Part shown: in pieces, positions 6,344-32,361 of the stretch | How the letters are laid out: each line of letters opens with the position of its first letter | How positions within the stretch are numbered: the stretch's first letter is position 1 | Assembly: GCA_037131105.1 (NCBI GenBank) | Contig: JBAXRQ010000001.1 | Location: forward strand, 66,039 to 130,038 | DNA length: 64,000 nt | Source of the DNA: a bacterium | GTDB lineage: Bacteria; Patescibacteriota; UBA1384; CAILIB01 | Direction of reading: 5' to 3' | Notes under the pieces: model-generated | What the model saw: only the letters and a program-made list of their open reading frames with translations | Databases searched by the model: none | What the model was told of the DNA's origin: nothing | Program-made: the position numbers and the translations under genes

Positions 6344-6775
6344 CTAAACCCTGCCTGCGAGGATGCGGGCAACGCCTATAATGGCTCCTAGTAAGGTATA
6401 AGCCGTTGCTATTACAACGACGGCGAGCAAGGAGTTAATGATGACCTGGCGGGCGCGCGTGACCGCCTCAGCGCTGCCATTGGCGGTGATATAGAGGATG
6501 CCGCCGTAAATAAGGCTTAGGACTGCCAGGCCGCCGAGAATGGGGAGGGCGACACGGTTGACCAGATGGTCCCAGACGAAATTTCCTACCCGGTTTACGT
6601 CGTCACCCTGCCCGTCAATAAAGCCGAACTGGGCTACGATAGCGGGGCTATTTGTACCGGCCGTACCCTGGCCGACGATATCGGGTATGGTGTTTCCGGC
6701 GTGGACAGCTGTCGGCGTGACGAAGGCCAGAGCCAGAGGAAGTAGTCGAAATGCGGTGAGTAGGCGGGCGATCAT
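6344..6775 (-). CDS. TrbC/VirB2-like small membrane protein, paralogue 2
   Basis: signal peptide; LIYGGILYITANGSAEAVTRARQVIINS-TM module. Confidence 0.6.
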   Translation of the reverse strand: MIARLLTAFRLLPLALAFVTPTAVHAGNTIPDIVGQGTAGTNSPAIVAQFGFIDGQGDDVNRVGNFVWDHLVNRVALPILGGLAVLSLIYGGILYITANGSAEAVTRARQVIINSLLAVVVIATAYTLLGAIIGVARILAGRV

Positions 6776-7548: not shown

Positions 7549-7549
7549 G

Positions 7550-7864
7550 CTACCTGAAGAGGTGGGTGATAAACCTGACGATGATGGCGGCAAAGACTAT
7601 AAGAAATATACCAAGAACCAGGTTCAATAAGTTCTTCTTGGCGGTAGTCCAGGCCTCAGGCTTGCCTGCCGAAGTGAGTAGAAGCCAGGCACAGAAGAGC
7701 AGGCACAGAAAGCCGAGCGGATAGGCGGCGAAGGTCAGCAGGTCGAGAGCCCGATTGAAGAGGTCGGGTACAGTTGTGACCGTTCCTGGTCCTGGAATGG
7801 TCAGAACGGCATCATCGGCATGGGCCGTCCCGATACCTAGCAGCAGTGTGAAGAATGGGTTCAT
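7550..7864 (-). CDS. TrbC/VirB2-like small membrane protein, paralogue 4
   Basis: signal peptide ...TAHA; LLLTSAGKPEAWTTAKKNLLNLV-TM module. Confidence 0.6.
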   Translation of the reverse strand: MNPFFTLLLGIGTAHADDAVLTIPGPGTVTTVPDLFNRALDLLTFAAYPLGFLCLLFCAWLLLTSAGKPEAWTTAKKNLLNLVLGIFLIVFAAIIVRFITHLFR

Positions 7865-7872
7865 GGCCAGAA

Positions 7873-9300
7873 CTAGGATGTGGGAACTGCGACTGGGTTC
7901 AGTAGGGTGTCTATCTGGTCGGCGGCAGTCTTGATGGCGTCAGCCGGGGAAATGCCGTTCTGGCTGACATTAACGATGGTTTGGTGGAAGGTTTGGTCAA
8001 ACTGGGTATGGCCTAGTTTGTAGGTGGTCTTGCCGGTGAGAATTTGCTTGCTCAGGAAGTCGCTGGAACTGTTCTGGTCCAAAGTAGCCGCAAATGGTGA
8101 CTTGAGCTTCAGTTCGCTGGCTAGGCCCTTGGCCATGGCTTGGTTGGTGTAAAGTTTCATAAAGGCAAAGGCGGCGGCTGGATTGTCGGCAGTCTTGGTG
8201 ACGGTCTCAAGAGAGAAACGGATCCAGTTTACTGGAGTCTGCGATACGCTTACCTGCGGCACAGGGCTAATTTGGGGACTGAAGTGAGGGTATTTTACTT
8301 TGAGTTTTTGTCCGAAGTCGGAGTACGCGACCACCATGGCAAGCTTTCCCTGGGCAAAGGCGTCGAGAGCGTCCGGCATGGAAGGGTTCCAGGAGTAGGT
8401 AGCCTTGCTAGGATCTGAGAACGAGGAGAAGAAGGAGAGGGCATTCTCACCTGGGCGTACCTGTCCTCCAGAAGGAGTGGTGGTGGGAACATGGAAAAGT
8501 GGGTTCTTGTGGTCGTCACTGACTATCTTGGCACCGTTCTGGCTGATCAGAAGTTCCAAAGTATCTTGGGCATTGGGAATGTTGTCGGCGGTACCGAGAG
8601 CGATGGCGGAGCGGGTGATGGTATTGCCGTTACGAATGGTAATGTACTTGACGTCATTGACTACATCGTCCCAGGTGGCCGGGGGATTATTCAATAGTAA
8701 GCGAACTGGTTGGTATAAGGCGTCGCTGAAATTGGTTCCGAGTGACTTGCGATAATCTTGTAGGGCTTGACTGAAGACGTCTTGGTTTACATAGAGCCTG
8801 AGAGTATCGACATTGGTAGGTAGGCCGTAGACATGGGTGCCGTCGGCACTGATGATCTGGCTGGAGATGCCGACAGGGTACAGTTTCTTCACTTCGTCCA
8901 CCGGCTTGGGGCTGCCGGTCACCTGGCTGAAGAAGTCGTCGGGGAGAGGCTGGACCTGGTCCTGGTAGTCGCCTATCCAGTCGTTGGGGATGCTCCAGAT
9001 ATCCGGCCCCTGCCTTCCGGCGAGCGACTTCAGGGAGGCAAATTCGTAGTTATCGATAGTTCGGTTCTGGTAGCTGACCTTGGTAGCTGTGTGGTCCTTC
9101 TGGAACTGAGTAATGGTGTCACGGAAGGAGTCGACTGCCTGGCCTACCCGCCAGATACGGATCAGGTTGGTATGGGGGGTGCTAGTACCGGTAGTGCTGC
9201 AGCCGGTCGCCACAAGGCCGAAAATGCCGATGAGGCCGACAGTGGCTCCCTTGGAGAGCTTCAGCCTCAGTTTTTTTGATGGTGAGTGGTGCTGCCCCAT
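7873..9300 (-). CDS. lipoprotein, extracellular solute-binding protein (ABC family-1-like), orphan
   Basis: lipobox LVATGC; PDIWSIPNDWIGDY and LYVNQDVF resemble sugar-binding proteins; no permease or ATPase adjacent. Confidence 0.55.
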   Translation of the reverse strand: MGQHHSPSKKLRLKLSKGATVGLIGIFGLVATGCSTTGTSTPHTNLIRIWRVGQAVDSFRDTITQFQKDHTATKVSYQNRTIDNYEFASLKSLAGRQGPDIWSIPNDWIGDYQDQVQPLPDDFFSQVTGSPKPVDEVKKLYPVGISSQIISADGTHVYGLPTNVDTLRLYVNQDVFSQALQDYRKSLGTNFSDALYQPVRLLLNNPPATWDDVVNDVKYITIRNGNTITRSAIALGTADNIPNAQDTLELLISQNGAKIVSDDHKNPLFHVPTTTPSGGQVRPGENALSFFSSFSDPSKATYSWNPSMPDALDAFAQGKLAMVVAYSDFGQKLKVKYPHFSPQISPVPQVSVSQTPVNWIRFSLETVTKTADNPAAAFAFMKLYTNQAMAKGLASELKLKSPFAATLDQNSSSDFLSKQILTGKTTYKLGHTQFDQTFHQTIVNVSQNGISPADAIKTAADQIDTLLNPVAVPTS

Positions 9301-9312
9301 AGCACGAGATGA

Positions 9313-10194
9313 TTATGAGATGGTTTCCTGAAGGTACTTTCTAAAGTCGGCACCGAGGTCCTCGCGCTCGAGGGCGAACTCAACAGTGGCCTTCAGGTAC
9401 TCAAGCTTATTGCCGCAGTCGAAGAACTTGACTCCCTTGAGCTCCTTGGCGAAAGTAGGGCGCTCCTGAAGAAGGGCGTTGAGGGCGTCAACCAGCCAGA
9501 TCTCGCCGCCTTTGCCGGCAGTCTGCTGTTCGAGCTTGGTAAAGATGTCCGGGGTAAGTACGCAAGAGCTGATGAAGGCATAGGGGGAGATCTTGTTGTC
9601 TACGCCTGGCTTTTCTACGACCTCGGAGAGTTCATACACTCCGTTTCCCTTGTCTTCCTTCACCTTGACATAGCCGTACTTGTCGTAGTCGCTGTCGGCG
9701 GTTCGTTCCATTACCGAGAGAACTGGTCCCTGGTATTGCTCGTAGGTGGCGATCAGCTGCTCGATCTTAGAGGGGGTTCCCTTGTAGACCTCATCCCCCC
9801 AGACCATGACGAAGGGCTCGTCGCCTACCACTTCCTTAGCCTGGAGAATGGCATGGCCGTTGCCCAGCTGCTCCTTCTGGCGGACGTAGACGAACTTGGC
9901 GATATCAGAGATGTCGCGGATCATCTTCTTCTGGGCCAGCTTACCTGATTTCTCAAGCAGGTATTCGAGCTCCAGATTGTAATCGAAGTAGTCCTCGATG
10001 GCCCGCTTACTGTAGCCGGTGATAAGAATGACCTCGGTGATGCCAGCCGCTACCGCCTCTTCGACGATATACTGGATGACCGGACGGTCAACGATGGGCA
10101 GCATCTCCTTGGGTATGGACTTGGTGAAGGGGAGAAAGCGGGTGCCGTAGCCGGCTACCGGGATGACGATCTTGCGAATTTTGGACATTTCCAA
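9313..10194 (-). CDS. galU: UTP--glucose-1-phosphate uridylyltransferase
   Basis: KIVIPVAGYGTRFLPFTKSIPKEMLPIVDRPVIQYIVEE. Confidence 0.9.
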   Translation of the reverse strand: MEMSKIRKIVIPVAGYGTRFLPFTKSIPKEMLPIVDRPVIQYIVEEAVAAGITEVILITGYSKRAIEDYFDYNLELEYLLEKSGKLAQKKMIRDISDIAKFVYVRQKEQLGNGHAILQAKEVVGDEPFVMVWGDEVYKGTPSKIEQLIATYEQYQGPVLSVMERTADSDYDKYGYVKVKEDKGNGVYELSEVVEKPGVDNKISPYAFISSCVLTPDIFTKLEQQTAGKGGEIWLVDALNALLQERPTFAKELKGVKFFDCGNKLEYLKATVEFALEREDLGADFRKYLQETIS

Positions 10195-10251
10195 TGAATG
10201 TTACGGTGGGTAGATACTCTTCCTTTGGGCGCTCTTGAGGCGGGCTCCGAA

Positions 10252-10647
10252 CTAACCGATTTCGACGGCGATGGTCTTAGTCCTAGCCTTGGCGGCCTTG
10301 GGAACGGTGACAGTAAGGATGCCATTGACCAGACGGGCTGTGGCCTTGTCGGAGTCTACGGCGACAGGTAGAGCATAGACGCGGGAGAAGGAGCCCCAGT
10401 AGCATTCCTGGACCATGTAGCCGTCTACCTGCTCGCTCTGGTTGTCATGGCGCTCACCTCGGATGCTGACCTGCTCGTCGGTGATGGTGACGTCAAGGTC
10501 TTCCTGGCGTACGCCGGCGATAGGGGCTTTGAGGATGATTTCGGACGGGGTCTGGTAGACGTCGATAGCCAGCTGGCCTTCAAGCTCTTCCATCCAGTCG
10601 GCCGGATCCACTATGGCCTGCATTGTCTCTTCTGGTTTTTTGCTCAT
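10252..10647 (-). CDS. Hsp20/alpha-crystallin small heat-shock protein
   Basis: alpha-crystallin domain; GILTVTVPK C-terminus. Confidence 0.85.
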   Translation of the reverse strand: MSKKPEETMQAIVDPADWMEELEGQLAIDVYQTPSEIILKAPIAGVRQEDLDVTITDEQVSIRGERHDNQSEQVDGYMVQECYWGSFSRVYALPVAVDSDKATARLVNGILTVTVPKAAKARTKTIAVEIG

Positions 10648-10695
10648 ACGGTCCTCCTTATTCCTATAATTCCTAGGATCTGATCTGTCACTAGT

Positions 10696-12003
10696 ATGCC
10701 CCAGTTTCCAGTGGCTTGCAAGGGTGGCCCGGACCTTGGAAATGCGGTAATGTACAGAGGTATGGCATATCTCTCTACACTCATTGCCTGGGCTCGCCGC
10801 CGCCCTGCCTCTGCCTTGCTCGCTGTCTTGGGAGTGGTCGCATTTGCAATTGGTATCTGGGCCCGGCTATATCACCTGGGAACTCCTAGTTCGCAGGTGT
10901 TTGACGAGGTCTATTTCCCGGTTTTTGCCAATGATTATCTGACCCACGTCAACTTCTTCGACGTGCATCCGCCGCTGGGTAAGTTCATCATCGCCCTAGG
11001 GGTCTGGGTATTCGGCAATGTGCCGTTTGGTTGGCGGATCATGCCGGCAGTGTTTGGCTTGGGTCTACCGGTGCTAGGCGGCTTCACTTGGTATTGGTGG
11101 CGCAAGGAGAGGCTGGGCGCCCTGCTGTTCGCAGTCTTTCTGGCTATTGAGACGATACTCATTGTCTATTCTCGCACCGGGCTGATGGACGGCATCCAGA
11201 CCTTCTTCATACTGGCTGTGTTTGCGGCGGCGGTGCGGATCAAGCGGCCCGAGCAGGTGGTCTGGGTGGCCTTGCTGCTGGGCATGGCTTGTGGGGTCAA
11301 GTGGATTTCACTGGGAGTCATCGTGCCGGTTCTCTATGTGATGTGGCGGCGGAAGTTGTTACTTCCGTTTCTGTTGAGTGTGCCGGTGGTTTTGGCGGCG
11401 TACCTGGTAGTCGTGGTGGTCGGCCAGGCACTTACGGGCTCTACCGATCCCTGGCAGGGTATGGTGCTATGGCACCAACAGGCCTGGGGCTATCAGCTGG
11501 GACTCACCGCCACCCATCCGTGGAGCTCGAAGTGGTGGAGCTGGCCGCTGATGCTGAGGCCGGTACTCTTTTATTACCAGTCCGATGACCAGGGTCGCAT
11601 AATGATGATTACCGCGCTAGGCAATCCCATTCTCTGGTGGAGTAGTACTGCAGCGGTAGTAGTTAGCCTTTTCGTGGTAATCAATGCCTGGTGGCAGGCC
11701 GGGTGGAGGAAGATGCTTGAGCATCCGCTTGTACCGTTGCTGCTCGGCTGGTCGGCACTATTTCTGCCGTTTATCCCGGTACACCGGGTCATGTTCATTT
11801 ATCATTACCTGCCGTCATATGCGTTTGCCATGCTGATGCTGACCGATCTGCTGGGCCGGATCTGGAAGCGCTCGCCCTGGCCGGTGGTGCTGTTTGTGGC
11901 AGTGGTGCTGGGGATCTCAATCTACTACCTGCCCTTTGCCATGGGTCTGCCGCTTAGTCCTGAAGGAAACCAGCAGCATCTCTGGCTGCAGTCGTGGCTC
12001 TAG
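10696..12003 (+). CDS. dolichyl/polyprenyl-phosphate-mannose--protein O-mannosyltransferase (GT39/PMT family)
   Basis: DEVYFPVFANDYL...FFDVHPPLGK signature loop, polytopic; true start may be M19 or M23. Confidence 0.75.
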   Translation: MPQFPVACKGGPDLGNAVMYRGMAYLSTLIAWARRRPASALLAVLGVVAFAIGIWARLYHLGTPSSQVFDEVYFPVFANDYLTHVNFFDVHPPLGKFIIALGVWVFGNVPFGWRIMPAVFGLGLPVLGGFTWYWWRKERLGALLFAVFLAIETILIVYSRTGLMDGIQTFFILAVFAAAVRIKRPEQVVWVALLLGMACGVKWISLGVIVPVLYVMWRRKLLLPFLLSVPVVLAAYLVVVVVGQALTGSTDPWQGMVLWHQQAWGYQLGLTATHPWSSKWWSWPLMLRPVLFYYQSDDQGRIMMITALGNPILWWSSTAAVVVSLFVVINAWWQAGWRKMLEHPLVPLLLGWSALFLPFIPVHRVMFIYHYLPSYAFAMLMLTDLLGRIWKRSPWPVVLFVAVVLGISIYYLPFAMGLPLSPEGNQQHLWLQSWL

Positions 12004-13605: not shown

Positions 13606-14388
13606 ATGCGCATTGGCATCTTTGATTCCGGCTTGGGCGGTCTGCTCATCTGCCACTCCCTAGTGGCGGCATTACCTGACTATGATTACGTGTATCTCGG
13701 AGATACCAAACGAGTGCCCTACGGCAACCGTTCCCAGGAGGCGGTGTTCGAATTTACCTGCCAGGCGGCACAGTATCTTTTTGAAAAGGAAGACTGCCAG
13801 CTGATCATTGTGGCCTGCAATACGGCTTCGGCCGAGGCCTTGCGGAAGGTCCAGCAGGAGTGGCTGCCACAGCATTTTCCCGAGAGAAGGGTGCTGGGAG
13901 TGATCGTGCCGACGGTAGAGGCGCTCGGTTCGTTACAAGAAGGTGATAAGGTAGGTATCCTGGCTACCACAAGTACGGTAAACTCGCAGGCTTATCCCAT
14001 TGAGATTGCCCAACGTTTCCCAAGCCTTACCGTGATCCAGCAGGCGGCTCCGCTTCTGGTACCGCTCATCGAGCATAAGGGGCTTCAGTGGGCTGGGCCT
14101 ATCCTTGATCACTATCTCGAACCGCTGAGGGACTGCGCGGCCATAGTGCTCGGCTGCACCCATTATGCGGCCATAAAGGACATGGTGGCGGAGCGGCTGC
14201 CGCATGCGCAGATAATCGCCCAGGACGAGCTGATTCCGGCTTCGTTCAAGCAGTATTTGGGGCGTCACCCTGAGACTGAAATACTACTGGGACGAGGTGG
14301 AGGCAGACACTACCTGGTGACCGACTTGACCGAGAACCTACCTCATTTCAATAGCGTTGACATCAGCCTAACCGAGATCGCCCTATGA
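13606..14388 (+). CDS. murI: glutamate racemase
   Basis: IGIFDSGLGGL, YLGDTKRVPYG, VACNTAS motifs. Confidence 0.9.
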   Translation: MRIGIFDSGLGGLLICHSLVAALPDYDYVYLGDTKRVPYGNRSQEAVFEFTCQAAQYLFEKEDCQLIIVACNTASAEALRKVQQEWLPQHFPERRVLGVIVPTVEALGSLQEGDKVGILATTSTVNSQAYPIEIAQRFPSLTVIQQAAPLLVPLIEHKGLQWAGPILDHYLEPLRDCAAIVLGCTHYAAIKDMVAERLPHAQIIAQDELIPASFKQYLGRHPETEILLGRGGGRHYLVTDLTENLPHFNSVDISLTEIAL

Positions 14389-17460: not shown

Positions 17461-18291
17461 TTAGTAGCCGAAGCGCGCTATCAGTATGAGCAGCACCAAG
17501 GCCAGGGCGAACCTATAATAGGCGAAGCTGGTCAGCGAGTAGCGGGTATAGAACCTCAGCAGGAACTTCAGGGTGAAGTATCCGGTGATGAATGAGACGA
17601 CCGCGCCTACGAGATAGAAGGCAAGTACGTCGGCGGCAATTCCCTGGCTATGAATGAGGCTAACGAAGTCCAGCAGCTTCTTGCCGGTGGCGGCGATGGT
17701 GATCGGTACTGAGAGGAGGAAGCTGTAGCGGGCGGCAGTTACCCGGTCCATACCGAGGAAGAGACCGGTGGTAATGGTTATGCCGGAACGGGAGACGCCG
17801 GGAACGAATGCCAGACACTGGGAGAGAGCGGTCGCAACTATCTGAAGAGGAGTAGGTTCAACGTTGTGGTCGCGCCGCCAGGTGATCACTTCGGCCACGA
17901 TCATCAGGATACCTACGATGACAAGGCTGGCGGCGATATATGAGAGTGAGCGAAACTGGGTCTCGATCCGCTTCTGCAGCAGCATGCCGAGCAGGCCAAC
18001 CGGGACAGTGGCTCCCAGTATTAGCCAGGGCATCTGTTCCTTGGCGGCAAGCGGCTTGGCACCGGAGGGGAGGCGGAGCCTTCCGAAGATGTCCCTAAGG
18101 TCACTCCAGAAAAAGATAAGGACGGCGGCGATAGTCCCAAGATTGATAAACATGTCGAAGGACAGGCCGTAGGTGGCCTGATTCAGTCCGAACAGCTTCT
18201 CGGTAATGATAAGGTGTGCGGTGGAGGAGACCGGCAGGAATTCGGTAATGCCTTGGACGGCACCAAGGATGATAGCTTGGATAATGTGCAT
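17461..18291 (-). CDS. uppP: undecaprenyl-diphosphate phosphatase
   Basis: GITEFLPVSSTAHL signature. Confidence 0.9.
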   Translation of the reverse strand: MHIIQAIILGAVQGITEFLPVSSTAHLIITEKLFGLNQATYGLSFDMFINLGTIAAVLIFFWSDLRDIFGRLRLPSGAKPLAAKEQMPWLILGATVPVGLLGMLLQKRIETQFRSLSYIAASLVIVGILMIVAEVITWRRDHNVEPTPLQIVATALSQCLAFVPGVSRSGITITTGLFLGMDRVTAARYSFLLSVPITIAATGKKLLDFVSLIHSQGIAADVLAFYLVGAVVSFITGYFTLKFLLRFYTRYSLTSFAYYRFALALVLLILIARFGY

Positions 18292-19199: not shown

Positions 19200-21059
19200 T
19201 TATTCAAGGCCGGGAGTCAGCTGTTTCATACGTTCCTGAAAGCGTTTGTTTTGCTGTGCTTGCTGATATAGGTTTGGAAATCTTTTGAGATGGTCAAGGG
19301 CGAGTATCTGCAGTTCGTCGTCGTCAAACGTTACGCAGCTAAGGGATATCTCGCCAAGGTCATCCTTTCGATACAGGCTGTCAAATACTGCTCTCATGTC
19401 GATGCCTAGTTCAGGGTACTCTTTCTGGAGACTGAAGAGAGTCCCGGTCTTGCTGGAGGTAAATATTCTCTTAGTTGTGTTGGGGATCTCAGCGGCTAAA
19501 TAGGGGATAAGTGTTGGAGGTAGGTTCTGGGTGGTGCCGGTGGTTAGGATGAAGTCAAGAACATTACGGGCAAAGACGGCTTGTTGGGCCTCAACTGTGG
19601 AGTGGCCGCCGGCATCCTTCCGGGAAGCGCTTTCTATTCTTTGTGCGTAGTAGGCCATGATGGCATGGATCGCCTCGGGGTCTGGGTTGCGTCTTAGCTG
19701 GTCTTCGTAGGCTTGAACTATGGGTTCCATGCGAGTCGGGGTATAGTCCAGATCGTACATTTCGCCGGTTTTGAGGTTCTCTTTTGCCCAGGTTGCATCA
19801 ACGACCGTGACTTCGCCGGAGCCGTCCTTTGTGACGGTGAGAAAGCTGTTCCAGGCATGGGATGTGTCGAGGTTTTCCTTTCCGGGCGCATAGTCGTGGC
19901 CGCTGCTGTATATACAGTGGGTGTTGCGAAGCTGGTTGAGCTCTTTCTGGCTTGCCTTTAGTGCGTTGAAGACATCCAGTACGGCTGCGGCAAAGTTTCG
20001 ACAGACCCCGTTTCCTTTCCAATCAGGATCGCTACGATTGATTAGTCCTTCCTCCAATAGCTCGATGGTGGAGCTGGTGTCGGCGGACGTAGGGGCATAC
20101 CGTTCTGTTATCTCCCCTTTCTCATCTCTCTTCACCCGCTCTGATTTATAGTCGGCGTAGTATTTTCTGAGCTTGACTATCAGAGAGGTCGATAGCTCGG
20201 CCGCTTGCCGGGGGCTCAACTCGCGCAGGTTGGTGATCCCGATCTGGCGGGCAAGTTCGGGCTCTTCCTGGAGCAAATAGCCTTGCACAAAGCGGTAGAG
20301 CTCTCGTTCCCACCCCTCTCGTTTCATGGTCTCACTGTGGGTGGCCACTCTCGTAAGCTCACGCTCGTACTCGCCTCTTACACCCCCGATCTGGGAGTGA
20401 GCGTAAGCGTTATCAGAGGTGTAAAACTTATCCCCGAGCTCCTTGCTGATGGGGTATTCCTGGTCAGTAGGCGAAGGCTGAGGGTCGTAGCCGTTGAAAT
20501 CCACGAACGAGACGGTAGTGTTTGGGTCGGGCTTGAAGCGGAGCAGGGGGCTGTGACTGAGCTGTTCCTCGTAGTGGGCCCGTTGGTCGATGTAGCAGTG
20601 TCTGGCTTCTTCCCAGGTCGCACAACGTGAGCTCCCGATGACCAGTTCACCACTTTCCAGGTCAACTAGCTGGGGGTAGACTACGGCATACGTTCCATCC
20701 GGCTTTTTCTCAATGCTGCAGTTCACCGTATAGGTCGCGGCCAGCTCTTTCTGGTCGTAATATTCGCGCATGAGGGTTCGTTTCTGCATCCAGTCACCTG
20801 CTCCTTTCTGGATGTCGGCTTGTGCCTGCATGTCGATCTGAGAGTCAGCTGCGGCACGCTCGGCACTTTCGCGGTCAAAAAACCCTTCGGTGGCGGTACC
20901 GATTATTCTTCCGTTGAAATCGGTGAGCCCTGGGAGAATTGCCTCGAAGGCGCCGCTTGCAGTCTCTCGCACTTCATACAATGCGGAAAGACCCCGCTGT
21001 TCCGGCCTAGGTGTCTCGGCGTCTTTAACCGGTGGTGCTTCGTGCTCGTAACTCATCAC
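19200..21059 (-). CDS. large cytoplasmic protein with central transglutaminase-like cysteine-protease core
   Basis: GNGVCRNFAAAVLDVF (Cys), about 39 aa later SHAWNSFL (His), about 17 aa later VVDATW (Asp): spacing typical of the transglutaminase-like superfamily; about 340-aa N-terminal and 200-aa C-terminal regions unrecognised; no signal peptide. Confidence 0.6.
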   Translation of the reverse strand: MMSYEHEAPPVKDAETPRPEQRGLSALYEVRETASGAFEAILPGLTDFNGRIIGTATEGFFDRESAERAAADSQIDMQAQADIQKGAGDWMQKRTLMREYYDQKELAATYTVNCSIEKKPDGTYAVVYPQLVDLESGELVIGSSRCATWEEARHCYIDQRAHYEEQLSHSPLLRFKPDPNTTVSFVDFNGYDPQPSPTDQEYPISKELGDKFYTSDNAYAHSQIGGVRGEYERELTRVATHSETMKREGWERELYRFVQGYLLQEEPELARQIGITNLRELSPRQAAELSTSLIVKLRKYYADYKSERVKRDEKGEITERYAPTSADTSSTIELLEEGLINRSDPDWKGNGVCRNFAAAVLDVFNALKASQKELNQLRNTHCIYSSGHDYAPGKENLDTSHAWNSFLTVTKDGSGEVTVVDATWAKENLKTGEMYDLDYTPTRMEPIVQAYEDQLRRNPDPEAIHAIMAYYAQRIESASRKDAGGHSTVEAQQAVFARNVLDFILTTGTTQNLPPTLIPYLAAEIPNTTKRIFTSSKTGTLFSLQKEYPELGIDMRAVFDSLYRKDDLGEISLSCVTFDDDELQILALDHLKRFPNLYQQAQQNKRFQERMKQLTPGLE

Positions 21060-21125
21060 TTTTTATAGTAGAAAATAGAGCCTCATAGTTGTTCCTGGCG
21101 GTGCCATTGGCTTACACTAGTATAT

Positions 21126-21752
21126 ATGAAATACCAGGTGCCTGCACTCTACAAGCGCATAGATGCCTTTGCCAAGACCCCGGCCAATGCCCTGGTCGCC
21201 TTTCTATGGGGGGTATGCGAGGGGATATTCTTCTTTATAGTACCGGATGTCTACTGCGCCTATATCACGCTTTTCAACCGAAGAGCCGGCTGGACCGCTA
21301 TAGGCTTTTCAATCCTGGGTACCCTTCTGGCCTCGGTGGTCATGTATGCAGTCGTAGTGCTGGCGGGCAACGGGATCATTACCTACCTTCTGCACGTGCC
21401 TGAGATTAGCCGCCCCATGCTGGATACTGTTTCGAATACGCTAGCGGCTGGGGGCCTGGCGGGGCTGGGGAAGCTGCACATCTCCCGGCTGATACTGGGG
21501 GCCATTCCCAGTAAGGTGTATTCGAGCTTGGCGGCGCTTGCCGGAATACCCCTGTGGGCCTTTCTGCTCTGGACCATTCCTATGCGTATTCTGAGGCTTT
21601 CTTGGGCCATGCTGCTTTCCACCTGGCTGAATGGCAGATATAGCGCTAGTATTAAGGCGCATACCAAATCCTGGACCGTGGGGTATGTCATATTCTGGAC
21701 CGTGTTGCACGCATCATACTATGTAGTCGTCGCCCTTAGCTTTCACCAGTAA
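21126..21752 (+). CDS. hypothetical polytopic membrane protein
   Basis: 5-6 TM; first gene of the phospholipid cluster. Confidence 0.5.
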   Translation: MKYQVPALYKRIDAFAKTPANALVAFLWGVCEGIFFFIVPDVYCAYITLFNRRAGWTAIGFSILGTLLASVVMYAVVVLAGNGIITYLLHVPEISRPMLDTVSNTLAAGGLAGLGKLHISRLILGAIPSKVYSSLAALAGIPLWAFLLWTIPMRILRLSWAMLLSTWLNGRYSASIKAHTKSWTVGYVIFWTVLHASYYVVVALSFHQ

Positions 21753-21763
21753 CTGAAATTATC

Positions 21764-22363
21764 ATGGGTATCTACTCGGTAAAGCCAAAGTTTCAGAAGA
21801 TTCTTACCCCGGTGAAAGACCTGCTGGTGAGGGGAAAGGTGCATCCGACCACCATCAATATCATCGGGCTGGCGATCTCGCTCCTGGCGGGCATAGCGCT
21901 TTATTACTCAGGACAGTATGCCCTGCTGCTCTGGTACATCCCGGTGGCCGGCTTTGTGCGTACTGCCTGTAACGCCTTGGATGGCCTGGTTTCAAGAGAG
22001 CTGGGGGAGGCCTCGGCCTTTGGGGAGGTGCTCAATGAGTTCATTGACCGCATATCCGACTCGGCTATCTTTCTCGGCGTCACGTTCTCGGCATTAGCTG
22101 ATATGCGACTGGGGATAGTTACTCTGGTAGTTATCCTGCTGAACAGCTATCTCAGCATCGTCAGCAAGGCAGCTGGCGGTAGTAGGCAGTACGGAGGCAT
22201 CATGGGTAAGGCCGATAGGATGATCTACCTCGGTATCGCTGCGGTGGCTGTAGCTGTGAGCGGTTATACGGAGATCTGGAATTATTTCCTTGTCTTTATT
22301 CTAGCCGGCACTATGATTACCATGTACCAGCGCTTCATGGTCACCCGCAAGGAGCTTGCCTAG
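21764..22363 (+). CDS. CDP-alcohol phosphatidyltransferase family protein
   Basis: DG(x2)AR(x8)G(x3)D(x3)D motif: NALDGLVSRELGEASAFGEVLNEFIDRISD. Confidence 0.75.
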   Translation: MGIYSVKPKFQKILTPVKDLLVRGKVHPTTINIIGLAISLLAGIALYYSGQYALLLWYIPVAGFVRTACNALDGLVSRELGEASAFGEVLNEFIDRISDSAIFLGVTFSALADMRLGIVTLVVILLNSYLSIVSKAAGGSRQYGGIMGKADRMIYLGIAAVAVAVSGYTEIWNYFLVFILAGTMITMYQRFMVTRKELA

Positions 22364-23315
22364 TATGGAGGGCCTCTTTGCGAATCCGCTGGCAAATCCC
22401 ATTTTCATCCCCCTGATGACCAGGATGTTGGTGCTCTTTTCGGCCGGCTTCCTGATCCTGTTGGCACTGAAGAAGGGTAATTATGCTGCCCTGATGGGCT
22501 CGAACCTCGGCCAGCGTTACGTTGGCTGGCTCATTCTTTTTCCGATCTACGTGGTAGGCACCTTTTTCGGTGCTCTTTTTGGTCATATCGTACTCTTTGC
22601 TTTTATGTACCTGGCCTTGGCCGAGATAGTCAGGGTCTCGGGACTTTCGCGGGCGTACCACGTCGCCTTGGTGGTTCTCTCGATCTATAGCCTGTTCATC
22701 GCTGCCTTGCATCCTGAGTATTTCTTCTCCCTCCCCTTGGTGTACTTCATTGTCCTCACCCTGGTCGCTATCCGGTCCAATGACGCTGAAAAGGGTCTGC
22801 AGCAGGCGGCCGTCTCCCTATTCGTGGCCATCTGGATTATCTTCAGCATGAGTCATATCGACCTACTGGCCCACCTGAACAACCATCTTGATCAGACCAG
22901 TAGCTTGGTCTTCCTGGTGATCTTCGCGGTGGCCCTGGCCGATATCGGAGGATATATCTTCGGCAAGACGTTTGAGAAGCTGCATTTCTTTGATGCCTAC
23001 AAAATCGCTCCCAACCTTAGTCCAAATAAGACGTATGCGGGGACGCTGGGCTATATGATTGGCGCCGGCATCGGTATCGCCTTCCTCTACTTCGCGGTGG
23101 GAGGGTACCTGGCCCCTCCGCTCTGGGTTGTTGTAGCTGTTCTGATTGGCTTGTTCGCTCCGGTCGGGGGGATGACTCACTCGCTTTTCAAACGTTTTTA
23201 CGGTGTGAAGGACAGCGGTAGCCTGATTCCCGGACACGGCGGTATCCTGGACCGGGTAGACAGCATGGTCCGCGTAGTGGTCATCCTCTATTATTTCTTC
23301 CGACTATTCCTCTAG
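22356..23315 (+). CDS. cdsA: phosphatidate cytidylyltransferase
   Basis: SPNKTYAG...KRFYGVKDSGSLIPGHGGILDRVDS signature. Confidence 0.85.
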   Translation: MPSMEGLFANPLANPIFIPLMTRMLVLFSAGFLILLALKKGNYAALMGSNLGQRYVGWLILFPIYVVGTFFGALFGHIVLFAFMYLALAEIVRVSGLSRAYHVALVVLSIYSLFIAALHPEYFFSLPLVYFIVLTLVAIRSNDAEKGLQQAAVSLFVAIWIIFSMSHIDLLAHLNNHLDQTSSLVFLVIFAVALADIGGYIFGKTFEKLHFFDAYKIAPNLSPNKTYAGTLGYMIGAGIGIAFLYFAVGGYLAPPLWVVVAVLIGLFAPVGGMTHSLFKRFYGVKDSGSLIPGHGGILDRVDSMVRVVVILYYFFRLFL

Positions 23316-23642
23316 GAGGGTCACGGTGGCGATAGCATAGTCGCAGTCATGGGAGATGCTGCAGTCTAGTGAGAGAATGGTTTTTTGGTGGGCTTCGGGG
23401 GATATCTTAAGGGACGGTTTGCCGTTTTCAGCATAGATGACCTCGATATCCAGCCAGCTGCCAGCTTTGAGCCCGAACGCCTTGAGAGCGGCCTCCTTCA
23501 GGGCGAAGACTCCTGCCGCATGCAGGGGATCGCGGCGGCGCAGCTCCCCGGGATGAAATATGCGGAAACTCGAGGCTTCGCTTTCTATAAGGGGAAGGAC
23601 ACGATCTATCTTCACGATGTCGCAGCCGGTAGAAATAGTCAT
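23304..23642 (-). CDS. acpS: holo-[acyl-carrier-protein] synthase (4'-phosphopantetheinyl transferase)
   Basis: start at internal M (MTISTGCDIVKI), AGVFALKEAALKA, SISHDCDYAIATV; ORF-track start at 23753 adds 37 non-conserved residues. Confidence 0.75.
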   Translation of the reverse strand: MTISTGCDIVKIDRVLPLIESEASSFRIFHPGELRRRDPLHAAGVFALKEAALKAFGLKAGSWLDIEVIYAENGKPSLKISPEAHQKTILSLDCSISHDCDYAIATVTLLEE

Positions 23643-26101
23643 AACTCTTCCACCATCTTCTGGATCGCTTCGGTCGCTTGGATATAGGAAAGGGTTCTGG
23701 AAAGCGTGACCGGGGACCCGATTGTGACCGTAGTAGTTCCTTTTTTTGGCCAATGAGAGCCTTTAGGGAGAAGGTTCTGGTTTCCCTGCATCTTAATAGG
23801 AACGATAGGGCCCCCGAGTTCCAGGGCGGCCAGTCCTATACCATGTTTGAAGGCGCCGAGTCTGCCAGTAGTGCTGCGGGTTCCCTCAGGATAGATCAGT
23901 ACCGAGTAGCCGCGGTCCAGGAAGGCTCCCATGGCGGCAATGCTGCTGCCGGCATTTCCGTCCCGGTCGACGGGGAAGGCATTGAAGAGTAGTCGGGCCC
24001 AGAACGAGCGGATCCTGGTTTTGAAGAAGTAATCCTTGGCAGCGGCGGTAGCTAGATGGTCACTGATGCCAAAAGGCAGGGACCGCAGAACGGTAGGGGT
24101 GTCGAAATGACTGGTATGGTTGGCGACGAAGATAGACGGTTGCTGAGGCATTTCGCCCACCAGTCTGACCTGAAGCCGCTGGTAATACCAGACAAAGACC
24201 ACAATGGGAACGCGAAGGATGACGCGGATAAAGCCTATTCCCCATGAGAGTGGCCAAAGGACTATGGGCTGTCCGCTTAGTTCAGCGGCCTTTCCGACCT
24301 TGACCAAGTTTGCCAGTTGACCGACGCTGGTGGTCTGGTCGAGCTCATCCTCGCTCAATACGGTCCCTAGATCTTCTTCAATCTGGGAAAGAAGCTCTAG
24401 CCGTTTGATTGAATCAAGACCAAGGTCAGCCACTAACAATTGGGAATCCGCCAAGGTGTCAGGCGCTACCGAGCAGACGCGGGAAAGAATAAGAAAAAGG
24501 GCTGAGACATCCTTGCCAGTGTCACTGTGGGCTAGCGTCTTGTCGTCATGCGACTGCTCTAGCCGCTTCCTTATCTCCTCCCTACGGACTTTGCGGGTGG
24601 TGGTGCGGGGAAAGTCCTCATCAGGCCAAGGGATTATCTCGCGTAGGGTCTGGTGCGAAGCCAGGCGTCCGTTTAGGGTGACTGCCATCTCTTTCAGGTC
24701 GGGCTGTCCGACGGAAATGACCGTGGCTACCAGTTGAATCTCGCCGTGGCGCTCTATACCGGTTACCACGCTGTCACGCACCGTAGAGAGTCCGTTTAAG
24801 AGCTTTTCGATGTCTTCCGGGTGCACCTTCATTCCCGAACTAGTAATGATCATGGTCTTGATGCGGCCTTTCAGTCGCAGGTAGCCATCAGAGCCAAGCT
24901 CGCCAATATCGCCGGTTTTGAACCAGCCTTCCGGGGTAAGGGTCGCTGCGGTAGCCTCGGGGTTCTGCCAATAGCCCTTAAAGATGTGCGACCCCTTGAG
25001 CTGGATCTCGCCGCCTTCGGCAAGGGTCAGCTCTTGTTCGGGAAGTGGTCTGCCGACGGTCCCGGCCTGATAGAAGAGCAGGCTACTTGAGGTGACGGCG
25101 GGACTGCTTTCGGTCATCCCGTAGCCTTGCAGAACGTGGATGCCTAGCCTTTCCCAAAAGTCTTCGACTTCGGTGGGAAGGGGGGCGCCGGCTACAGTAA
25201 AGAAGATAAGTCTGCCGCCGAGGCTTCGGTGGATGCCATGGAAGAGTCGTCGTCGAAAGGACCGGGGAAGGCGGCCGGCCAGGTGTAATGCTCGCTCGAG
25301 CTGCTTGCTGCGGCCTTGTTCGCTAGCCTCCTGGACGATGCGATGCTGCATAAGCTCAAGAAATGCCGGCACGGTCACCATGGTGGTAGGCCGTTCCAGT
25401 CTGAGGCTGCGGCGAATCTCCACTGGCCTAACCGATATCGGATAGATCACTGGGCTGCCGCAGGCAAAGGGTACGAACAGGCCGAGAGTCTGCTCGAACA
25501 TATGGCTGAGAGGTAGGGTGGAAAGGAGCCTGTAGTCGTTGCCAATCTCCCAGGCCTGTCTGAGTGAGGTTATGTCGGAAAGGATATTGCCATGGCTGAG
25601 CATCACTCCTTTGGGCGTCCCAGTGCTGCCTGAAGTGTAAACAATCTCGAGTAGATCATCGGGCTCGGTGGCTATGGTAGTGGTGTGACGGGGAAGCCCA
25701 CTTATGAGGGAGGGGAGCTCTTCAAGGGGAACGACCATGGCGTTTGTGGGGAAGAAGGACTGTTTGAAGAGTGAGGTGAAACAGAGCTTGGGAGAGGTCT
25801 GCTTTAGAACGCTGTCGATAAAATCGGGCGTGGAGTTTAGATCCAAGGGCACCGCGATGACACCTAGCTTGGCGCAGGCGAGGAAGGCGGCCACCCAGAG
25901 GGGGCTGTTAGTGCCACAGATCACTACTCGGTCTCCCTTGCGGAGGTGGCCGTATTCAAGCAGTGTTGCTATGCGGGCCGATACCTGCAAAATCTGCTCA
26001 TAGCTCCATTCAATGCGGCGATAGCGTCGTCGTTCGATGAAGGCTGTCTGAGATCCGCGTCCAGCCGCCGTATTCTCTAGGTAGTGAAAAAGATTCTCCA
26101 T
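23639..26101 (-). CDS. three-domain fusion: acyl-AMP/acyl-CoA ligase + phosphopantetheine carrier domain + PlsC-type acyltransferase
   Basis: YTSGSTGTPKGV AMP-binding box; LGLDSIKRLEL carrier motif with Ser; NHTSHFD (HX4D) and YPEGTRS acyltransferase motifs. Confidence 0.8.
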   Translation of the reverse strand: MENLFHYLENTAAGRGSQTAFIERRRYRRIEWSYEQILQVSARIATLLEYGHLRKGDRVVICGTNSPLWVAAFLACAKLGVIAVPLDLNSTPDFIDSVLKQTSPKLCFTSLFKQSFFPTNAMVVPLEELPSLISGLPRHTTTIATEPDDLLEIVYTSGSTGTPKGVMLSHGNILSDITSLRQAWEIGNDYRLLSTLPLSHMFEQTLGLFVPFACGSPVIYPISVRPVEIRRSLRLERPTTMVTVPAFLELMQHRIVQEASEQGRSKQLERALHLAGRLPRSFRRRLFHGIHRSLGGRLIFFTVAGAPLPTEVEDFWERLGIHVLQGYGMTESSPAVTSSSLLFYQAGTVGRPLPEQELTLAEGGEIQLKGSHIFKGYWQNPEATAATLTPEGWFKTGDIGELGSDGYLRLKGRIKTMIITSSGMKVHPEDIEKLLNGLSTVRDSVVTGIERHGEIQLVATVISVGQPDLKEMAVTLNGRLASHQTLREIIPWPDEDFPRTTTRKVRREEIRKRLEQSHDDKTLAHSDTGKDVSALFLILSRVCSVAPDTLADSQLLVADLGLDSIKRLELLSQIEEDLGTVLSEDELDQTTSVGQLANLVKVGKAAELSGQPIVLWPLSWGIGFIRVILRVPIVVFVWYYQRLQVRLVGEMPQQPSIFVANHTSHFDTPTVLRSLPFGISDHLATAAAKDYFFKTRIRSFWARLLFNAFPVDRDGNAGSSIAAMGAFLDRGYSVLIYPEGTRSTTGRLGAFKHGIGLAALELGGPIVPIKMQGNQNLLPKGSHWPKKGTTTVTIGSPVTLSRTLSYIQATEAIQKMVEEL

Positions 26102-26131
26102 AAGCTTAGTGTGCTTTGTGTCCTAATCTCA

Positions 26132-27268
26132 TCACTTGGTATATAAGTAAAAAAAGTCTTTTTCGTAGCCGTGTAGGTAGGCCTTGCCCCCGTCTGTTAG
26201 TCCTTTGACCAGCGGGGACCAGGTGTATCCGCCTCCTGTATAATCATACACCATGAACCTGACCCAGAAATCGTTGATGTCGAGCTGCATGGCATTCTGA
26301 CTACCGGCCAGGCGTAAGGCGTCAGCGAGGGAAGTCGGGGTGAGCGAAGGCCCGACTGCATAGACCAGATCTCCGTCTGCCGTCACCCCTAGTCCAGACC
26401 TCCAAGTGACATAGCCTCCGGCCGCCGTGCCGGCCCAGAGGTCTATGCCGTGGGAGGTATTCTGGGCAGTCTTACCGTTAATGACCAAGAGGGGGCCGTT
26501 CTGGCGGGCGGCAATGACGTCAGAAGGTAGAGGAGTGCCTTCATAGGTAGTCAACTCGGTATGACCGTCGGCATATATGAGAAAGATGCTCAGGCCCTTC
26601 CGGAAGGGAACGTAGGTAGTGCCATCGGCGTACATGCCGTAGTGCCCGTCCTTCCCCTGGAATCCTCCGTTAAAGGCGGCGATGAGTCGGCCGCTATCTT
26701 GTATTGCCTGGGGGACCTTGCCCGGACCGGGTGCTCCGCCGGGGTACTTGGTGCCGGCCACCTCGTTGATACCTACCAGCTTCGAGGGGATCTCAACCAG
26801 ATTGACCACCGCAAACGGCCGCTCCTGATCGGTACGGATAAAGGTGGTAAACAACGGCGTCCCGGCAATGCCGCGCCAGACCCCTTCCCCGGCCAGCGGA
26901 TGGGTGATGTCAATAATGGGCGTGATAGGTGTCGGGGGTGGATTCGGGTCGGGAGTAGAGGCGGCCAGTGGCTCAGTAGTGGGGACCGGAACGGTCTTCA
27001 CGTCTACGGCATAAGCGGTAGTATCAGGGAGGTGGCCTAAGTGACGCTTGATCCTGTCCTGTAGTCCAAAGACGGCCCCCTCAAGGGAAATTACCGCCTT
27101 GTCACCGATGAGGGGTCGCAGAACGTTATCGGTGAAGGTGGCCGCTCCGGCCGGATTTTTGGAGAGATACAGCAGTCCGCCGCCCGAGACCATAATAAAA
27201 AAGACCAGGATGCCGCCGGTGGTATAAGCGGTAAGCCGCCAGGTGCGGGGAGATATGCGCATGACCAA
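26132..27268 (-). CDS. phosphodiester glycosidase-family (DUF2233-like) exported protein
   Basis: N-terminal TM anchor; AAFNGGFQGKDG...VINGK resembles the NAGPA-like domain. Confidence 0.45.
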   Translation of the reverse strand: MVMRISPRTWRLTAYTTGGILVFFIMVSGGGLLYLSKNPAGAATFTDNVLRPLIGDKAVISLEGAVFGLQDRIKRHLGHLPDTTAYAVDVKTVPVPTTEPLAASTPDPNPPPTPITPIIDITHPLAGEGVWRGIAGTPLFTTFIRTDQERPFAVVNLVEIPSKLVGINEVAGTKYPGGAPGPGKVPQAIQDSGRLIAAFNGGFQGKDGHYGMYADGTTYVPFRKGLSIFLIYADGHTELTTYEGTPLPSDVIAARQNGPLLVINGKTAQNTSHGIDLWAGTAAGGYVTWRSGLGVTADGDLVYAVGPSLTPTSLADALRLAGSQNAMQLDINDFWVRFMVYDYTGGGYTWSPLVKGLTDGGKAYLHGYEKDFFYLYTK

Positions 27269-27279
27269 ACTATACAGGT

Positions 27280-28233
27280 TTGGTCACCGGCTTGTATACT
27301 TGGGGCATGTCAAAACCCAGAAAAAAGCGGATACGCTGGATACGGGTCTTTACCCTACTGTGTGTAGTGGTTTTGGTGGCGGGCGCCGGGACGTATTGGT
27401 ACGGGAGAAAGGGCGGGGAGCCCGTCGTGGTGTTGGCGACTCCGACTCCGACTGCCCTTGTGACAGCTGATGCTGTGGCCACACCTTCGTCCACTCCGAC
27501 GCTTGCAGCTTCAGCTACTCCGTTTGCGGTCCAAATTTCTGTGGTCAAGATCGCATTGCAAAAAGCGATCTCCGCCCATCCTGAGCTTATAGTTGGCGCC
27601 AGTTTTATTGACCTGAATACCGGCACCCGTACCGATGTGAACGGCGACCGGGTCTTCACGGCGGCCAGTACCACTAAAGCCCTCATCGCCTGCCTGGTGC
27701 TTTCCCAGGTGGAGGCGGGGAAACATAGTCTGAGTGATCCGCTGGATGGGGGCACGGTGAAGTCACATCTGCAGCGTATGATAAACCAGAGCAACAATGA
27801 CTCCTGGATGGATTTGATGCAGTTCATTGGCTACTCCTACCAGATTCCCTACGCCAAGAGTATCGGCATTACTACCTATGACTTTCAGAATAACCGGATC
27901 TCGCCCAATGACGACGCCCTCCTGCTTTCGAAGTTGTATGCCGGCAAGCTGCTAAACCAGGCCGATACGGCCTTGTTGCTTTCCTATATGCATGACACCA
28001 ACTTCGACTATCTGATCCCGCCGGCCGTGCCAAAGGGGGTGAAGGTGTTTCACAAGTACGGGGACTATGAGGACGGGCTCCATGATACGGCTATCATCGA
28101 CGACGGGAAGAATCCCTTCGTACTTACGATCTATACCAACAGCACCAGCGGCGGCCTGGGGTATGAGGTCCGCTACCCGGCCTTTCAAGAGATTACCAAG
28201 GCGGTGGAGGAGGCGATGAATGTGCAGCTTTAG
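27280..28233 (+). CDS. class A beta-lactamase-like serine hydrolase, membrane-anchored
   Basis: FTAASTTK (SxxK), SNND (SDN-like), HKYGD (KTG-like) triad positions; Thr/Pro linker after TM. Confidence 0.6.
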   Translation: MVTGLYTWGMSKPRKKRIRWIRVFTLLCVVVLVAGAGTYWYGRKGGEPVVVLATPTPTALVTADAVATPSSTPTLAASATPFAVQISVVKIALQKAISAHPELIVGASFIDLNTGTRTDVNGDRVFTAASTTKALIACLVLSQVEAGKHSLSDPLDGGTVKSHLQRMINQSNNDSWMDLMQFIGYSYQIPYAKSIGITTYDFQNNRISPNDDALLLSKLYAGKLLNQADTALLLSYMHDTNFDYLIPPAVPKGVKVFHKYGDYEDGLHDTAIIDDGKNPFVLTIYTNSTSGGLGYEVRYPAFQEITKAVEEAMNVQL

Positions 28234-32239: not shown

Positions 32240-32323
32240 GGCGGAGGGTAAAGGAATCGAACCTTCAACATTGCTGTTGGTCCGGTTTTCAAGACCGGTT
32301 ACGAGCCACTCGTACTACCCTCC
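32239..32323 (-). tRNA. tRNA-Ser (anticodon TGA), type II, CCA encoded
   Basis: manual cloverleaf; anticodon stem CCGGT/ACCGG, loop CTTGAAA, variable arm CAACA-GCAA-TGTTG. Confidence 0.85.
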
Positions 32324-32361
32324 ACGTGCCGTCCCAGTCCCAGCACTATACCAATTCCAGG

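Follow-up and report, generated by a model that had tools for sequence, protein, structure and literature searches.

We report a cluster of five genes which, in these ultra-small bacteria of the Patescibacteria (candidate phyla radiation, CPR), probably constitutes a conserved lipid-assimilation module leading from scavenged fatty acids to membrane phospholipid. The cluster occupies positions 21126-26101 of a 64-kb stretch of contig JBAXRQ010000001.1, the whole of which is called the window below. On the forward strand it encodes a small membrane protein resembling the VTT/DedA family, a CDP-alcohol phosphatidyltransferase (hereafter, the transferase) and the phosphatidate cytidylyltransferase CdsA; converging on these from the reverse strand are the genes for an AcpS-type 4'-phosphopantetheinyl transferase and for a fusion of an adenylating ligase, a carrier and an acyltransferase (hereafter, the fusion; Table 1). 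The main grounds for treating the genes as one functional unit are their linkage in very different genomes, the translational coupling of acpS to the fusion and the retention of catalytic residues. A sequence-only reading of the window had named the five genes, in this order and on these strands, as a self-contained route of membrane-lipid salvage. The coordinates of the open reading frames (ORFs) proved exact and all gene identities correct, so that the observation itself is confirmed; the interpretation found partial support, as detailed below.

Conservation of the module across genomes

In the four-gene core, the fusion gene followed by acpS converges on the transferase gene followed by cdsA. 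At least five further genomes, all very divergent, share this core. These are represented by L008 (GCA_964549935.1, GC content 51%), L009/L010 (JGI and Logan contigs, 47.5%), L092 (a JGI contig, 39%), L093 (Candidatus Harrisonbacteria from Crystal Geyser, GCA_002773415.1) and L012, a 356-kb contig labelled Candidatus Woesearchaeota archaeon (CAYPFA010000001.1, 33%), the GC content of the genomes with the four-gene core spanning 33-56%. A further locus, on a forest-soil contig (L091, 64%), displays the co-linear arrangement VTT-like gene, fusion, transferase and cdsA, without acpS. Across the five convergent loci, identity to the window proteins amounts to 35-42% for the fusion, 39-48% for AcpS, 45-58% for CdsA and 48-66% for the transferase. 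Linkage maintained at such low identities must have survived long divergence. Six further loci, in widely differing genomes, show the linkage too, and the clustering is therefore not due to chance. For six of the ten closest fusion homologues, the longest contig was of the same size as the one listed for a close homologue of the transferase; in some cases, this contig spanned only 5 kb. The isolate name of the Harrisonbacteria genome bears the label CG10_big_fil_rev_8 of the CPR-rich Crystal Geyser sample analyzed by Probst et al. (PMC7242380).

The locus in L012 deserves separate mention. Its four-gene module (5959-10218), including a transferase 48% identical to that of the window, is flanked by genes for GatD, an archaeal-type amidotransferase subunit with GatD_N and asparaginase domains, and for GatB/E (4474-5898 and 10234-11583). 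The neighboring GatD with its GatD_N domain suggests that the contig is truly archaeal. The alternatives are uptake of a bacterial acyl-lipid module by a DPANN archaeon and an erroneous label of the bin.

Two further arrangements were noted among the relatives. On an 811-kb contig (L094, 7001-9744), the transferase gene, of the Asn/Asn type described below, and a cdsA shortened to 262 aa precede a transposase gene that stands in place of acpS and the fusion, which may represent a disrupted or an alternative version of the module. L008 (DAGK_prokar, 13689-14000) and L009 (DAGK_cat, 1287-2186) also encode diacylglycerol kinases only a few kb from the module, which hint that phosphatidate might be made by a second route, out of scavenged diacylglycerol; the window showed no such gene.

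Gene organization of the locus

Table 1 Coordinates of the lipid module and of the domains of the fusion protein, numbered along the window
Feature	Position	Strand	Match or remark
VTT/DedA-like membrane protein, 208 aa	21126-21752	+	Polytopic; without Pfam match at the default threshold
CDP-alcohol phosphatidyltransferase, 199 aa	21764-22363	+	Pfam CDP-OH_P_transf, 27.6 bits (cut-off 22)
cdsA, 316 aa, phosphatidate cytidylyltransferase (CDP-diacylglycerol synthase)	22365-23315	+	Pfam CTP_transf_1, 151.6 bits
Convergent 3'-end overlap of cdsA and acpS, 12 bp	23304-23315	both	From gene coordinates
acpS, 112 aa, AcpS-type 4'-phosphopantetheinyl transferase	23304-23642	-	Pfam ACPS, 39.1 bits; TIGR00556, 56.7 bits
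Ligase-carrier-acyltransferase fusion, 820 aa	23639-26101	-	Pfam AMP-binding 228, PP-binding 38, Acyltransferase 65.2 bits
Fusion: PlsC/AGPAT-type acyltransferase domain, aa 651-771	23789-24151	-	Pfam Acyltransferase, 65.2 bits
Fusion: hydrophobic segment, aa 613-640, preceding the acyltransferase domain	24182-24265	-	
Fusion: carrier (ACP) domain, aa 538-600; codon of Ser564 at 24410-24412	24302-24490	-	Pfam PP-binding, 38 bits
Fusion: adenylation (ANL) domain, aa 9-514	24560-26077	-	Pfam AMP-binding, aa 9-378; AMP-binding_C_3, aa 417-514

The five genes are tightly packed, and independent gene calls on the source contig (ENA ERZ27300165 k141_631109; 283,763 bp) yielded the same five. Between the membrane-protein gene and the transferase gene lie 11 nt, and the stop codon of the latter is separated from the ATG of cdsA by a single nucleotide (TAGTATG). 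On the reverse strand, the TGA of the fusion and the ATG of acpS share the tetranucleotide ATGA at 23639-23642, so that the two genes, which the sequence-only reading had described as adjacent, are in fact translationally coupled. The coupling is maintained in L008, L009, L092 and L093. The 3' ends of cdsA and acpS overlap in five of the six genomes with the convergent core, by 6-24 bp; besides the window, these are L009 (24 bp, 10790-10813), L092 (18 bp, 8745-8762), L093 (12 bp, 8544-8555) and L012 (6 bp, 8666-8671), the ends in L008 being without overlap. Such an arrangement leaves no space for terminators between the opposing transcription units and might affect expression through antisense transcription or collision. 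A scan of positions 20800-27600 for promoters and terminators returned counts equal to those in shuffled sequence and was thus uninformative. The GC content of the module (0.54-0.56) is the same as that of the remainder of the window. A gene for a NAGPA-domain protein (26132-27268), located 30 nt upstream of the fusion, was considered as a sixth component and rejected, given that it is not kept beside the module in L008, L009, L092 or L093.

The fusion protein and its AcpS

All three Pfam domains of the fusion exceed their cut-offs and follow each other in the order AMP-binding, PP-binding and Acyltransferase. Residues expected to be essential for each activity are invariant in 36 homologues of the fusion, namely, the adenylation lysine K504, the LGLDS motif of the carrier with D563-S564 as the phosphopantetheine site, and the acyltransferase blocks N661-H662-x4-D667 and P738-E739-G740. 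The nearest solved structures of the ligase domain are fatty-acyl-, feruloyl- and malonyl-coenzyme A (CoA) synthetases and FadD13, whereas the fatty acyl-AMP ligase (FAAL) 3pbk matches its N-terminal part only (aa 20-257, 81 bits). The domain thus appears closer to CoA ligases than to FAALs, and an FAAL identity was not adopted; its length of ~515 aa probably leaves no space for the FAAL insertion. A survey of FAALs mentions uncharacterised fusions with lysophospholipid acyltransferases (PMC8460268). The nearest NCBIfam model of the carrier is the AcpP-type acyl carrier protein (ACP) family TIGR00517 (acyl_carrier; 30.9 bits, under the cut-off), and an AcpP-like carrier would suit a transferase of the AcpS type. 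The product of acpS indeed belongs to the AcpS-type phosphopantetheinyl transferases, scoring above the cut-offs of TIGR00556 (45.35) and Pfam ACPS (25) and slightly under that of the acpS equivalog TIGR00516 (52.8 vs 59.8 bits). The acyltransferase domain scores 52.8 bits with TIGR00530 (AGP_acyltrn), for which the cut-off is 102.95, and 46.9 bits with the model of Aas-type acyl-[ACP]-phospholipid acyltransferases, and weakly matches a lyso-ornithine-lipid acyltransferase. PlsC of Thermotoga maritima (5kym) is its sole match in the PDB (E = 1e-11).

The same order of ligase, carrier and AGPAT-like acyltransferase on one polypeptide is found in ElbD of Myxococcus xanthus, the ligase and carrier activities of which have been confirmed in vitro (PMC9131029). 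ElbD, however, has an N-terminal fatty-acyl reductase-like (FAR1) domain and resides in the elb ether-lipid operon, whereas the window fusion begins its AMP-binding domain at residue 9, contains no reductase or NAD-binding domain detectable with Pfam, and sits with acpS, cdsA, the transferase and the VTT-like gene. Lacking a FAR1-like reductase, the fusion is grouped with the FAR-less ElbD-like homologues rather than with ElbD proper; such homologues are recorded in other phyla, as uncharacterised proteins, where PMC9131029 cites Lorenzen et al. 2014.

The resemblance to ElbD raises the possibility that the locus makes a specialised lipid instead of bulk phospholipid. Such a product could be a precursor of ether lipids, as with ElbD, an acylated amino lipid or a lipid anchor, to which the transferase would add a non-standard head group. 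We consider this reading very unlikely. It would accord with the role of ElbD, the closest characterized multidomain relative, in ether-lipid synthesis (PMC9131029), with the presence of the fusion architecture within the longer ORFs of Myxococcales and Polyangiaceae, with the score of the acyltransferase under the AGPAT cut-off along with its weak lyso-ornithine-lipid match, and with the failure of the transferase to fall into any curated equivalog. Against it stand the missing reductase domain; the tight pairing with CdsA, which points to flux from phosphatidate to CDP-diacylglycerol; the size of the genome, as ~1 Mb is unlikely to retain five genes for an accessory lipid; and the presence of acylglycerol lipids in CPR-enriched samples (PMC7242380).

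In Aas of Escherichia coli, the acyltransferase comes first, opposite to the order in the fusion, no carrier is embedded and free ACP is used. Aas, likewise combining adenylation and a PlsC-family acyltransferase in one protein, re-acylates lysophospholipid with exogenous fatty acid in conjunction with LplT (PMC11416262), and this pair is functionally the nearest analogue of the fusion. The acyltransferase domain of the fusion matches Aas-type models; the protein as a whole reaches only 19.7 bits with the Aas equivalog NF005959 (cut-off 886), which places it outside that family, and, unlike in the Aas-LplT system, no LplT gene lies beside it. In bacteria with type II fatty acid synthesis, the systems of the soluble acyl-ACP synthetase AasS or of FakAB with separate PlsX, PlsY and PlsC, as outlined in PMC12086093, share the same logic of activating an exogenous fatty acid, loading it onto a phosphopantetheine carrier and passing it to glycerolipid acyltransferases. 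They do so with a free ACP acting in trans and several separate enzymes, whereas three activities are fused in the window protein, which has a private AcpS.

Homologues of the fusion number more than 7,000. In a profile search of genome contigs, the matches listed were mostly distant or ligase-only and did not include the genome of the window itself; full-length fusions among them come from Dehalococcoidia (on chromosomes of 3-4 Mb), Acidobacteriota, Vicinamibacteria, Nitrosomonas and Limnocylindria, and in none of the free-living carriers among these matches is acpS, cdsA or the transferase gene adjacent. Matches from Myxococcales and Polyangiaceae correspond to far longer ORFs that contain the fusion architecture. 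The fusion hence does not mark symbionts deficient in fatty acid synthesis, full-length homologues being present in free-living lineages; the distinctive element is the module, not the fusion. Away from the CPR module, other genes recur next to the fusion: on a contig labelled Saccharibacteria (L013), a gene for a major facilitator superfamily (MFS) transporter (8395-9642) follows directly downstream, recalling LplT-Aas, and on two Dehalococcoidia chromosomes a gene for a metallo-beta-lactamase-fold protein lies directly upstream (L011, 5224-5952; L018, 5024-5869).

These data bear on a second alternative, namely, that the fusion serves only in membrane repair or remodelling, re-acylating lysophospholipids that arise from phospholipases or stress, in the manner of Aas-LplT, with acyl chains provided by type II fatty acid synthesis (FASII) or by import of intact lipids encoded elsewhere and with cdsA and the transferase gene as ordinary Kennedy-pathway neighbors. 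The 46.9-bit score with Aas-type models, the wide occurrence of the fusion in free-living bacteria and the MFS transporter directly after the fusion in L013 (compare LplT-Aas; PMC11416262) would all agree with such a role. Yet acpS, cdsA and the transferase gene accompany the fusion in at least six divergent genomes, the free-living carriers being without this linkage, and Patescibacteria are reported to be without fatty acid synthesis (PMC7242380; PMC10633639). Conserved linkage and a translationally coupled, dedicated AcpS argue for one pathway rather than chance neighbors, and we regard repair as the sole function as unlikely.

CdsA and the head-group transferase

The CdsA homologue matches CTP_transf_1 over profile positions 2-264 of 264, which establishes membership in the family, and scores 84.7 bits with the E. 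coli-type equivalog NF008635 (cut-off 385); it is thus best regarded as a family member and not an equivalog. Immediately upstream of cdsA, in the window as in L008, L009, L092 and L093, lies the transferase gene. Although the Pfam score of its product is just over the cut-off, several comparisons suggest where it belongs. Its highest NCBIfam scores are with archaetidylinositol-phosphate synthase (NF040950, 104 bits vs a cut-off of 180) and phosphatidylinositol-phosphate (PIP) synthase (NF045883, 88 vs 170), and its best sequence matches in the PDB are three solved PIP synthases (E = 2.5e-13). The AlphaFold2 (AF2) model (pLDDT, the per-residue confidence measure, 87.6) aligns with PIP synthases at template-modelling (TM) scores of 0.70-0.80, vs 0.55-0.56 with PgsA of Staphylococcus aureus. 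JGI labels call the family PgsA; this identity was rejected, as the protein scores only 17.3 bits with the pgsA model TIGR00560 (cut-off 109.1) and its fold is nearer to PIP synthases. The PIP synthases of Renibacterium and Mycobacterium kansasii, PgsA1 of Mycobacterium tuberculosis and archaetidylinositol-phosphate synthase are accordingly its best matches in sequence or fold, from which it differs in missing the equivalog cut-offs, in having no inositol-phosphate synthase gene nearby and in its catalytic signature.

The window motif N70-x2-D73-G-x2-S-R78...G87-x3-N91-x3-D95-R96 departs from the class I signature D-x2-D-G-x2-A-R...G-x3-D-x3-D in that the first and third Asp are replaced by Asn. 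Of the 120 best homologues, 118 carry this Asn/Asn combination together with the Arg, as does the archaeal-labelled copy in L012. In an alignment of 20 homologues, N70, D73, N91, D95, R96, S131, R152 and R190 vary little or not at all. The dinuclear Mg site of PgsA1 from M. tuberculosis is built from D68, D71, D89 and D93, with D68 and D89 ligating Mg-1 and D89 bridging to Mg-2. D93 has been proposed to act as the base, R94 is conserved among enzymes that use inositol phosphate, and S132, R155 and R195 bind phosphate (PMC6506517). The counterparts of D71, D93, R94, S132, R155 and R195, with roles as assigned in that work, are all retained in the transferase, S131, R152 and R190 corresponding to the phosphate-binding Ser/Arg set, so that both the Arg and the Ser/Arg set expected of a PIP synthase are present. 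We therefore describe the transferase as a distinct PIP-synthase-like subfamily with an altered metal site, which likely still uses a phosphorylated alcohol.

The altered site could also signify a non-canonical enzyme that works with a single metal, has the donor/acceptor polarity of choline/ethanolamine phosphotransferases, joining a CDP-alcohol to diacylglycerol, or exchanges head groups on scavenged lipids. In 118 of 120 family members, Asn takes the place of both Mg ligands corresponding to D68 and D89 of PgsA1 (PMC6506517), the Pfam and NCBIfam scores are marginal or under the cut-offs, and the diacylglycerol kinases near the module in L008 and L009 could be accommodated as well. We nevertheless find this unlikely, given that D73 and D95, the counterparts of a second-metal ligand and of the proposed base, are invariant together with R96 and the phosphate-binding Ser/Arg set, that the fold fits PIP synthases (TM 0.7-0.8) and that the gene is always found immediately upstream of cdsA.

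The VTT/DedA-like membrane protein

The remaining component, the 208-aa membrane protein, has 442 relatives in an exhaustive HMMER search. Its AF2 model (pLDDT 93.9) is all-helical. DedA/VTT proteins (PF09335) are likewise small, polytopic and all-helical, and ~40% of the relatives match them weakly (VTT_dom in 21 of 50 aligned relatives at E<=1, the best at 2.3e-7), whereas the window protein falls short of the Pfam cut-off (16 vs 33.9 bits). A search of PDB sequences with the family profile returned only spurious helix-turn-helix matches. The family adjoins the module in four genomes, in differing positions: upstream of the transferase gene in the window, divergent and adjoining the transferase gene in L009, ahead of the fusion in L091 (99% probability in hhalign) and overlapping the start of the fusion by 4 nt in the Harrisonbacteria genome (probability 98.6%). 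Among 94 loci, matches to the hidden Markov model (HMM) of the family are confined to those with the module. Persistence of the linkage despite shuffled positions argues that the VTT-like protein is a working partner. We thus consider it a putative distant member of the VTT/DedA superfamily and an accessory, position-variable component of the module and, on account of the superfamily and the linkage to lipid genes, a putative lipid scramblase or flippase. DedA proteins have a role in undecaprenyl-phosphate recycling. Such a role for the window protein, with BacA encoded 3 kb away, would be less consistent with the linkage to the module. The BacA/UppP gene in question, for an undecaprenyl-pyrophosphate phosphatase (17461-18291, reverse strand), could relate to lipid-carrier supply.

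Proposed pathway

We propose that the module operates as follows. The three-domain fusion would adenylate a free fatty acid, as its domains suggest, and load the acyl chain onto the phosphopantetheine arm of its own carrier, which the coupled AcpS would install at the cost of one CoA per protein molecule; the in vitro data on ElbD lend support to this step. Anchored to the membrane through the hydrophobic segment, the PlsC-type domain would then acylate a lysolipid to yield phosphatidate, the acceptor being most likely lysophosphatidate and possibly glycerol 3-phosphate (G3P) or another scavenged lysolipid. CdsA would turn phosphatidate into CDP-diacylglycerol, to which the PIP-synthase-like transferase would attach either inositol phosphate or glycerol phosphate as a phosphorylated polyol; a phosphatase encoded elsewhere would remove the phosphate to give an anionic phospholipid, and the VTT/DedA-like protein may move the lipid or lysolipid between leaflets. 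With the carrier built into the fusion, neither free ACP nor an acyl-CoA pool would be needed, which would fit a cell with minimal cofactor synthesis.

Several points weigh against this proposal. Two acylations would have to be performed by a single acyltransferase domain, unless lysolipids enter from outside, for which no importer was identified. No acyltransferase activity was detectable with purified ElbD (PMC9131029), and the fusion is frequent among free-living bacteria, which presumably synthesize fatty acids themselves, so that the protein as such is not restricted to salvage. With two metal-binding Asp of the transferase replaced by Asn, canonical chemistry is not guaranteed, and no gene for the inositol-phosphate synthase MIPS is present in the window or in the module flanks of L008, L009, L092 and L093. 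Furthermore, no phosphatase, G3P or inositol-phosphate supply, or uptake system for the route was identified with the module. For the membrane protein, the VTT_dom match (E = 0.018) stays under the cut-off, and a fold search of the PDB with its model gave nothing at E<=0.001. Finally, the DNA surveyed for FASII, free AcpP, PlsX/Y/B and a second PlsC (64-78 kb) covers ~8% of a genome of ~0.95 Mb. Lysolipid import would solve the problem of the two acylations.

The salvage route put forward by the sequence-only reading accordingly holds insofar as fatty acid activation and acyl transfer are linked with CdsA and a head-group transferase across CPR genomes; the term 'self-contained' overstated the case, given the single PlsC-type domain and the steps and supplies lacking an identified gene.

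Genomic setting

The gene content of the window is typical of the CPR and includes several PF18895 pilin-like genes, ComEC, VanW, DUF2207 and many orphans. The host is a member of the Patescibacteria, the nearest named relatives of its LepA being from a Patescibacteria group bacterium (77% identity) and from Uhrbacteria (60%). A fusion identical to that of the window is also encoded on an NCBI contig of 949,156 bp. As the sequence-only reading had noted, no fab genes occur among the Pfam matches in the 64 kb; extended by ~14 kb beyond the window, the called genes contain no members of the fab, acc (acetyl-CoA carboxylase), PlsX or PlsY families, and a search of the 64-kb window with HMMs for each of the fusion domains detected no further ORF of the carrier, PlsC or AMP-binding type. 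Missing fab genes in ~8% of a genome say almost nothing about the remainder, and we infer the absence of FASII from the literature on the lineage. Patescibacteria have been reviewed as being without fatty acid synthesis (PMC7242380; PMC10633639), and CPR-enriched samples contain acylglycerol (acyl-lipid) membranes rich in lysolipids, yet the lipid pathways of the CPR are incomplete (PMC7242380).

Other features of the window include a MIP-family channel (47762-48418, forward strand), possibly a glycerol facilitator, which could relate to glycerol supply. A run of four small genes (5809-7864, reverse strand), three of which match PF18895 (type IV secretion system pilin-like), lies directly downstream of a gene for a solute-binding protein (7873-9300), and a further PF18895 protein, of 489 aa, is encoded just outside the window start. 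The sequence at 32242-32324 (reverse strand) scores 50.8 with the Rfam tRNA-Sec model (gathering score 47) and is called tRNA-Ser(TGA) by ARAGORN, in view of which it is most likely an ordinary long-arm tRNA-Ser and not tRNA-Sec. Two ORFs of 619 aa have no Pfam or NCBIfam match (19200-21059, reverse strand, divergent from the VTT-like gene; 45906-47765, forward strand); tested as paralogues of each other and as kin of a 619-aa protein near the Harrisonbacteria module, they proved unrelated.

Implications for patescibacterial lipid metabolism

In the literature on CPR or fused-enzyme lipid assimilation, we found no description of the five-gene assembly with its private AcpS, of the Asn/Asn transferase subfamily or of a module-linked VTT-like protein. 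The components are of known kinds, whereas the conserved assembly, the Asn/Asn subfamily and the VTT linkage appear to be new. The CPR genomes of the lipidomics study were reported to contain no ACP-producing or ACP-requiring enzymes (PMC7242380); the module, which holds an ACP inside the fusion along with its AcpS, qualifies that remark.

How Patescibacteria obtain their membranes is an acknowledged gap, and the module offers a candidate answer in the form of five concrete genes. More tentatively, we suggest that it might be the missing lipid-assimilation pathway of many Patescibacteria, passed on to at least one DPANN archaeon. Under this scenario, a self-priming fusion would build phosphatidate from host fatty acids and lysolipids without free ACP and with little CoA, the CPR-specific Asn/Asn transferase, with its re-engineered metal site, would turn it into a phospholipid, and a VTT-type scramblase would spread the product. 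The fusing of the carrier thereby gains a rationale, in that a free ACP or acyl-CoA pool would become dispensable, and a transferase subfamily with an altered catalytic signature is exposed. If the archaeal label of L012 is correct, a bacterial-type acyl-lipid pathway would reside inside a DPANN archaeon.

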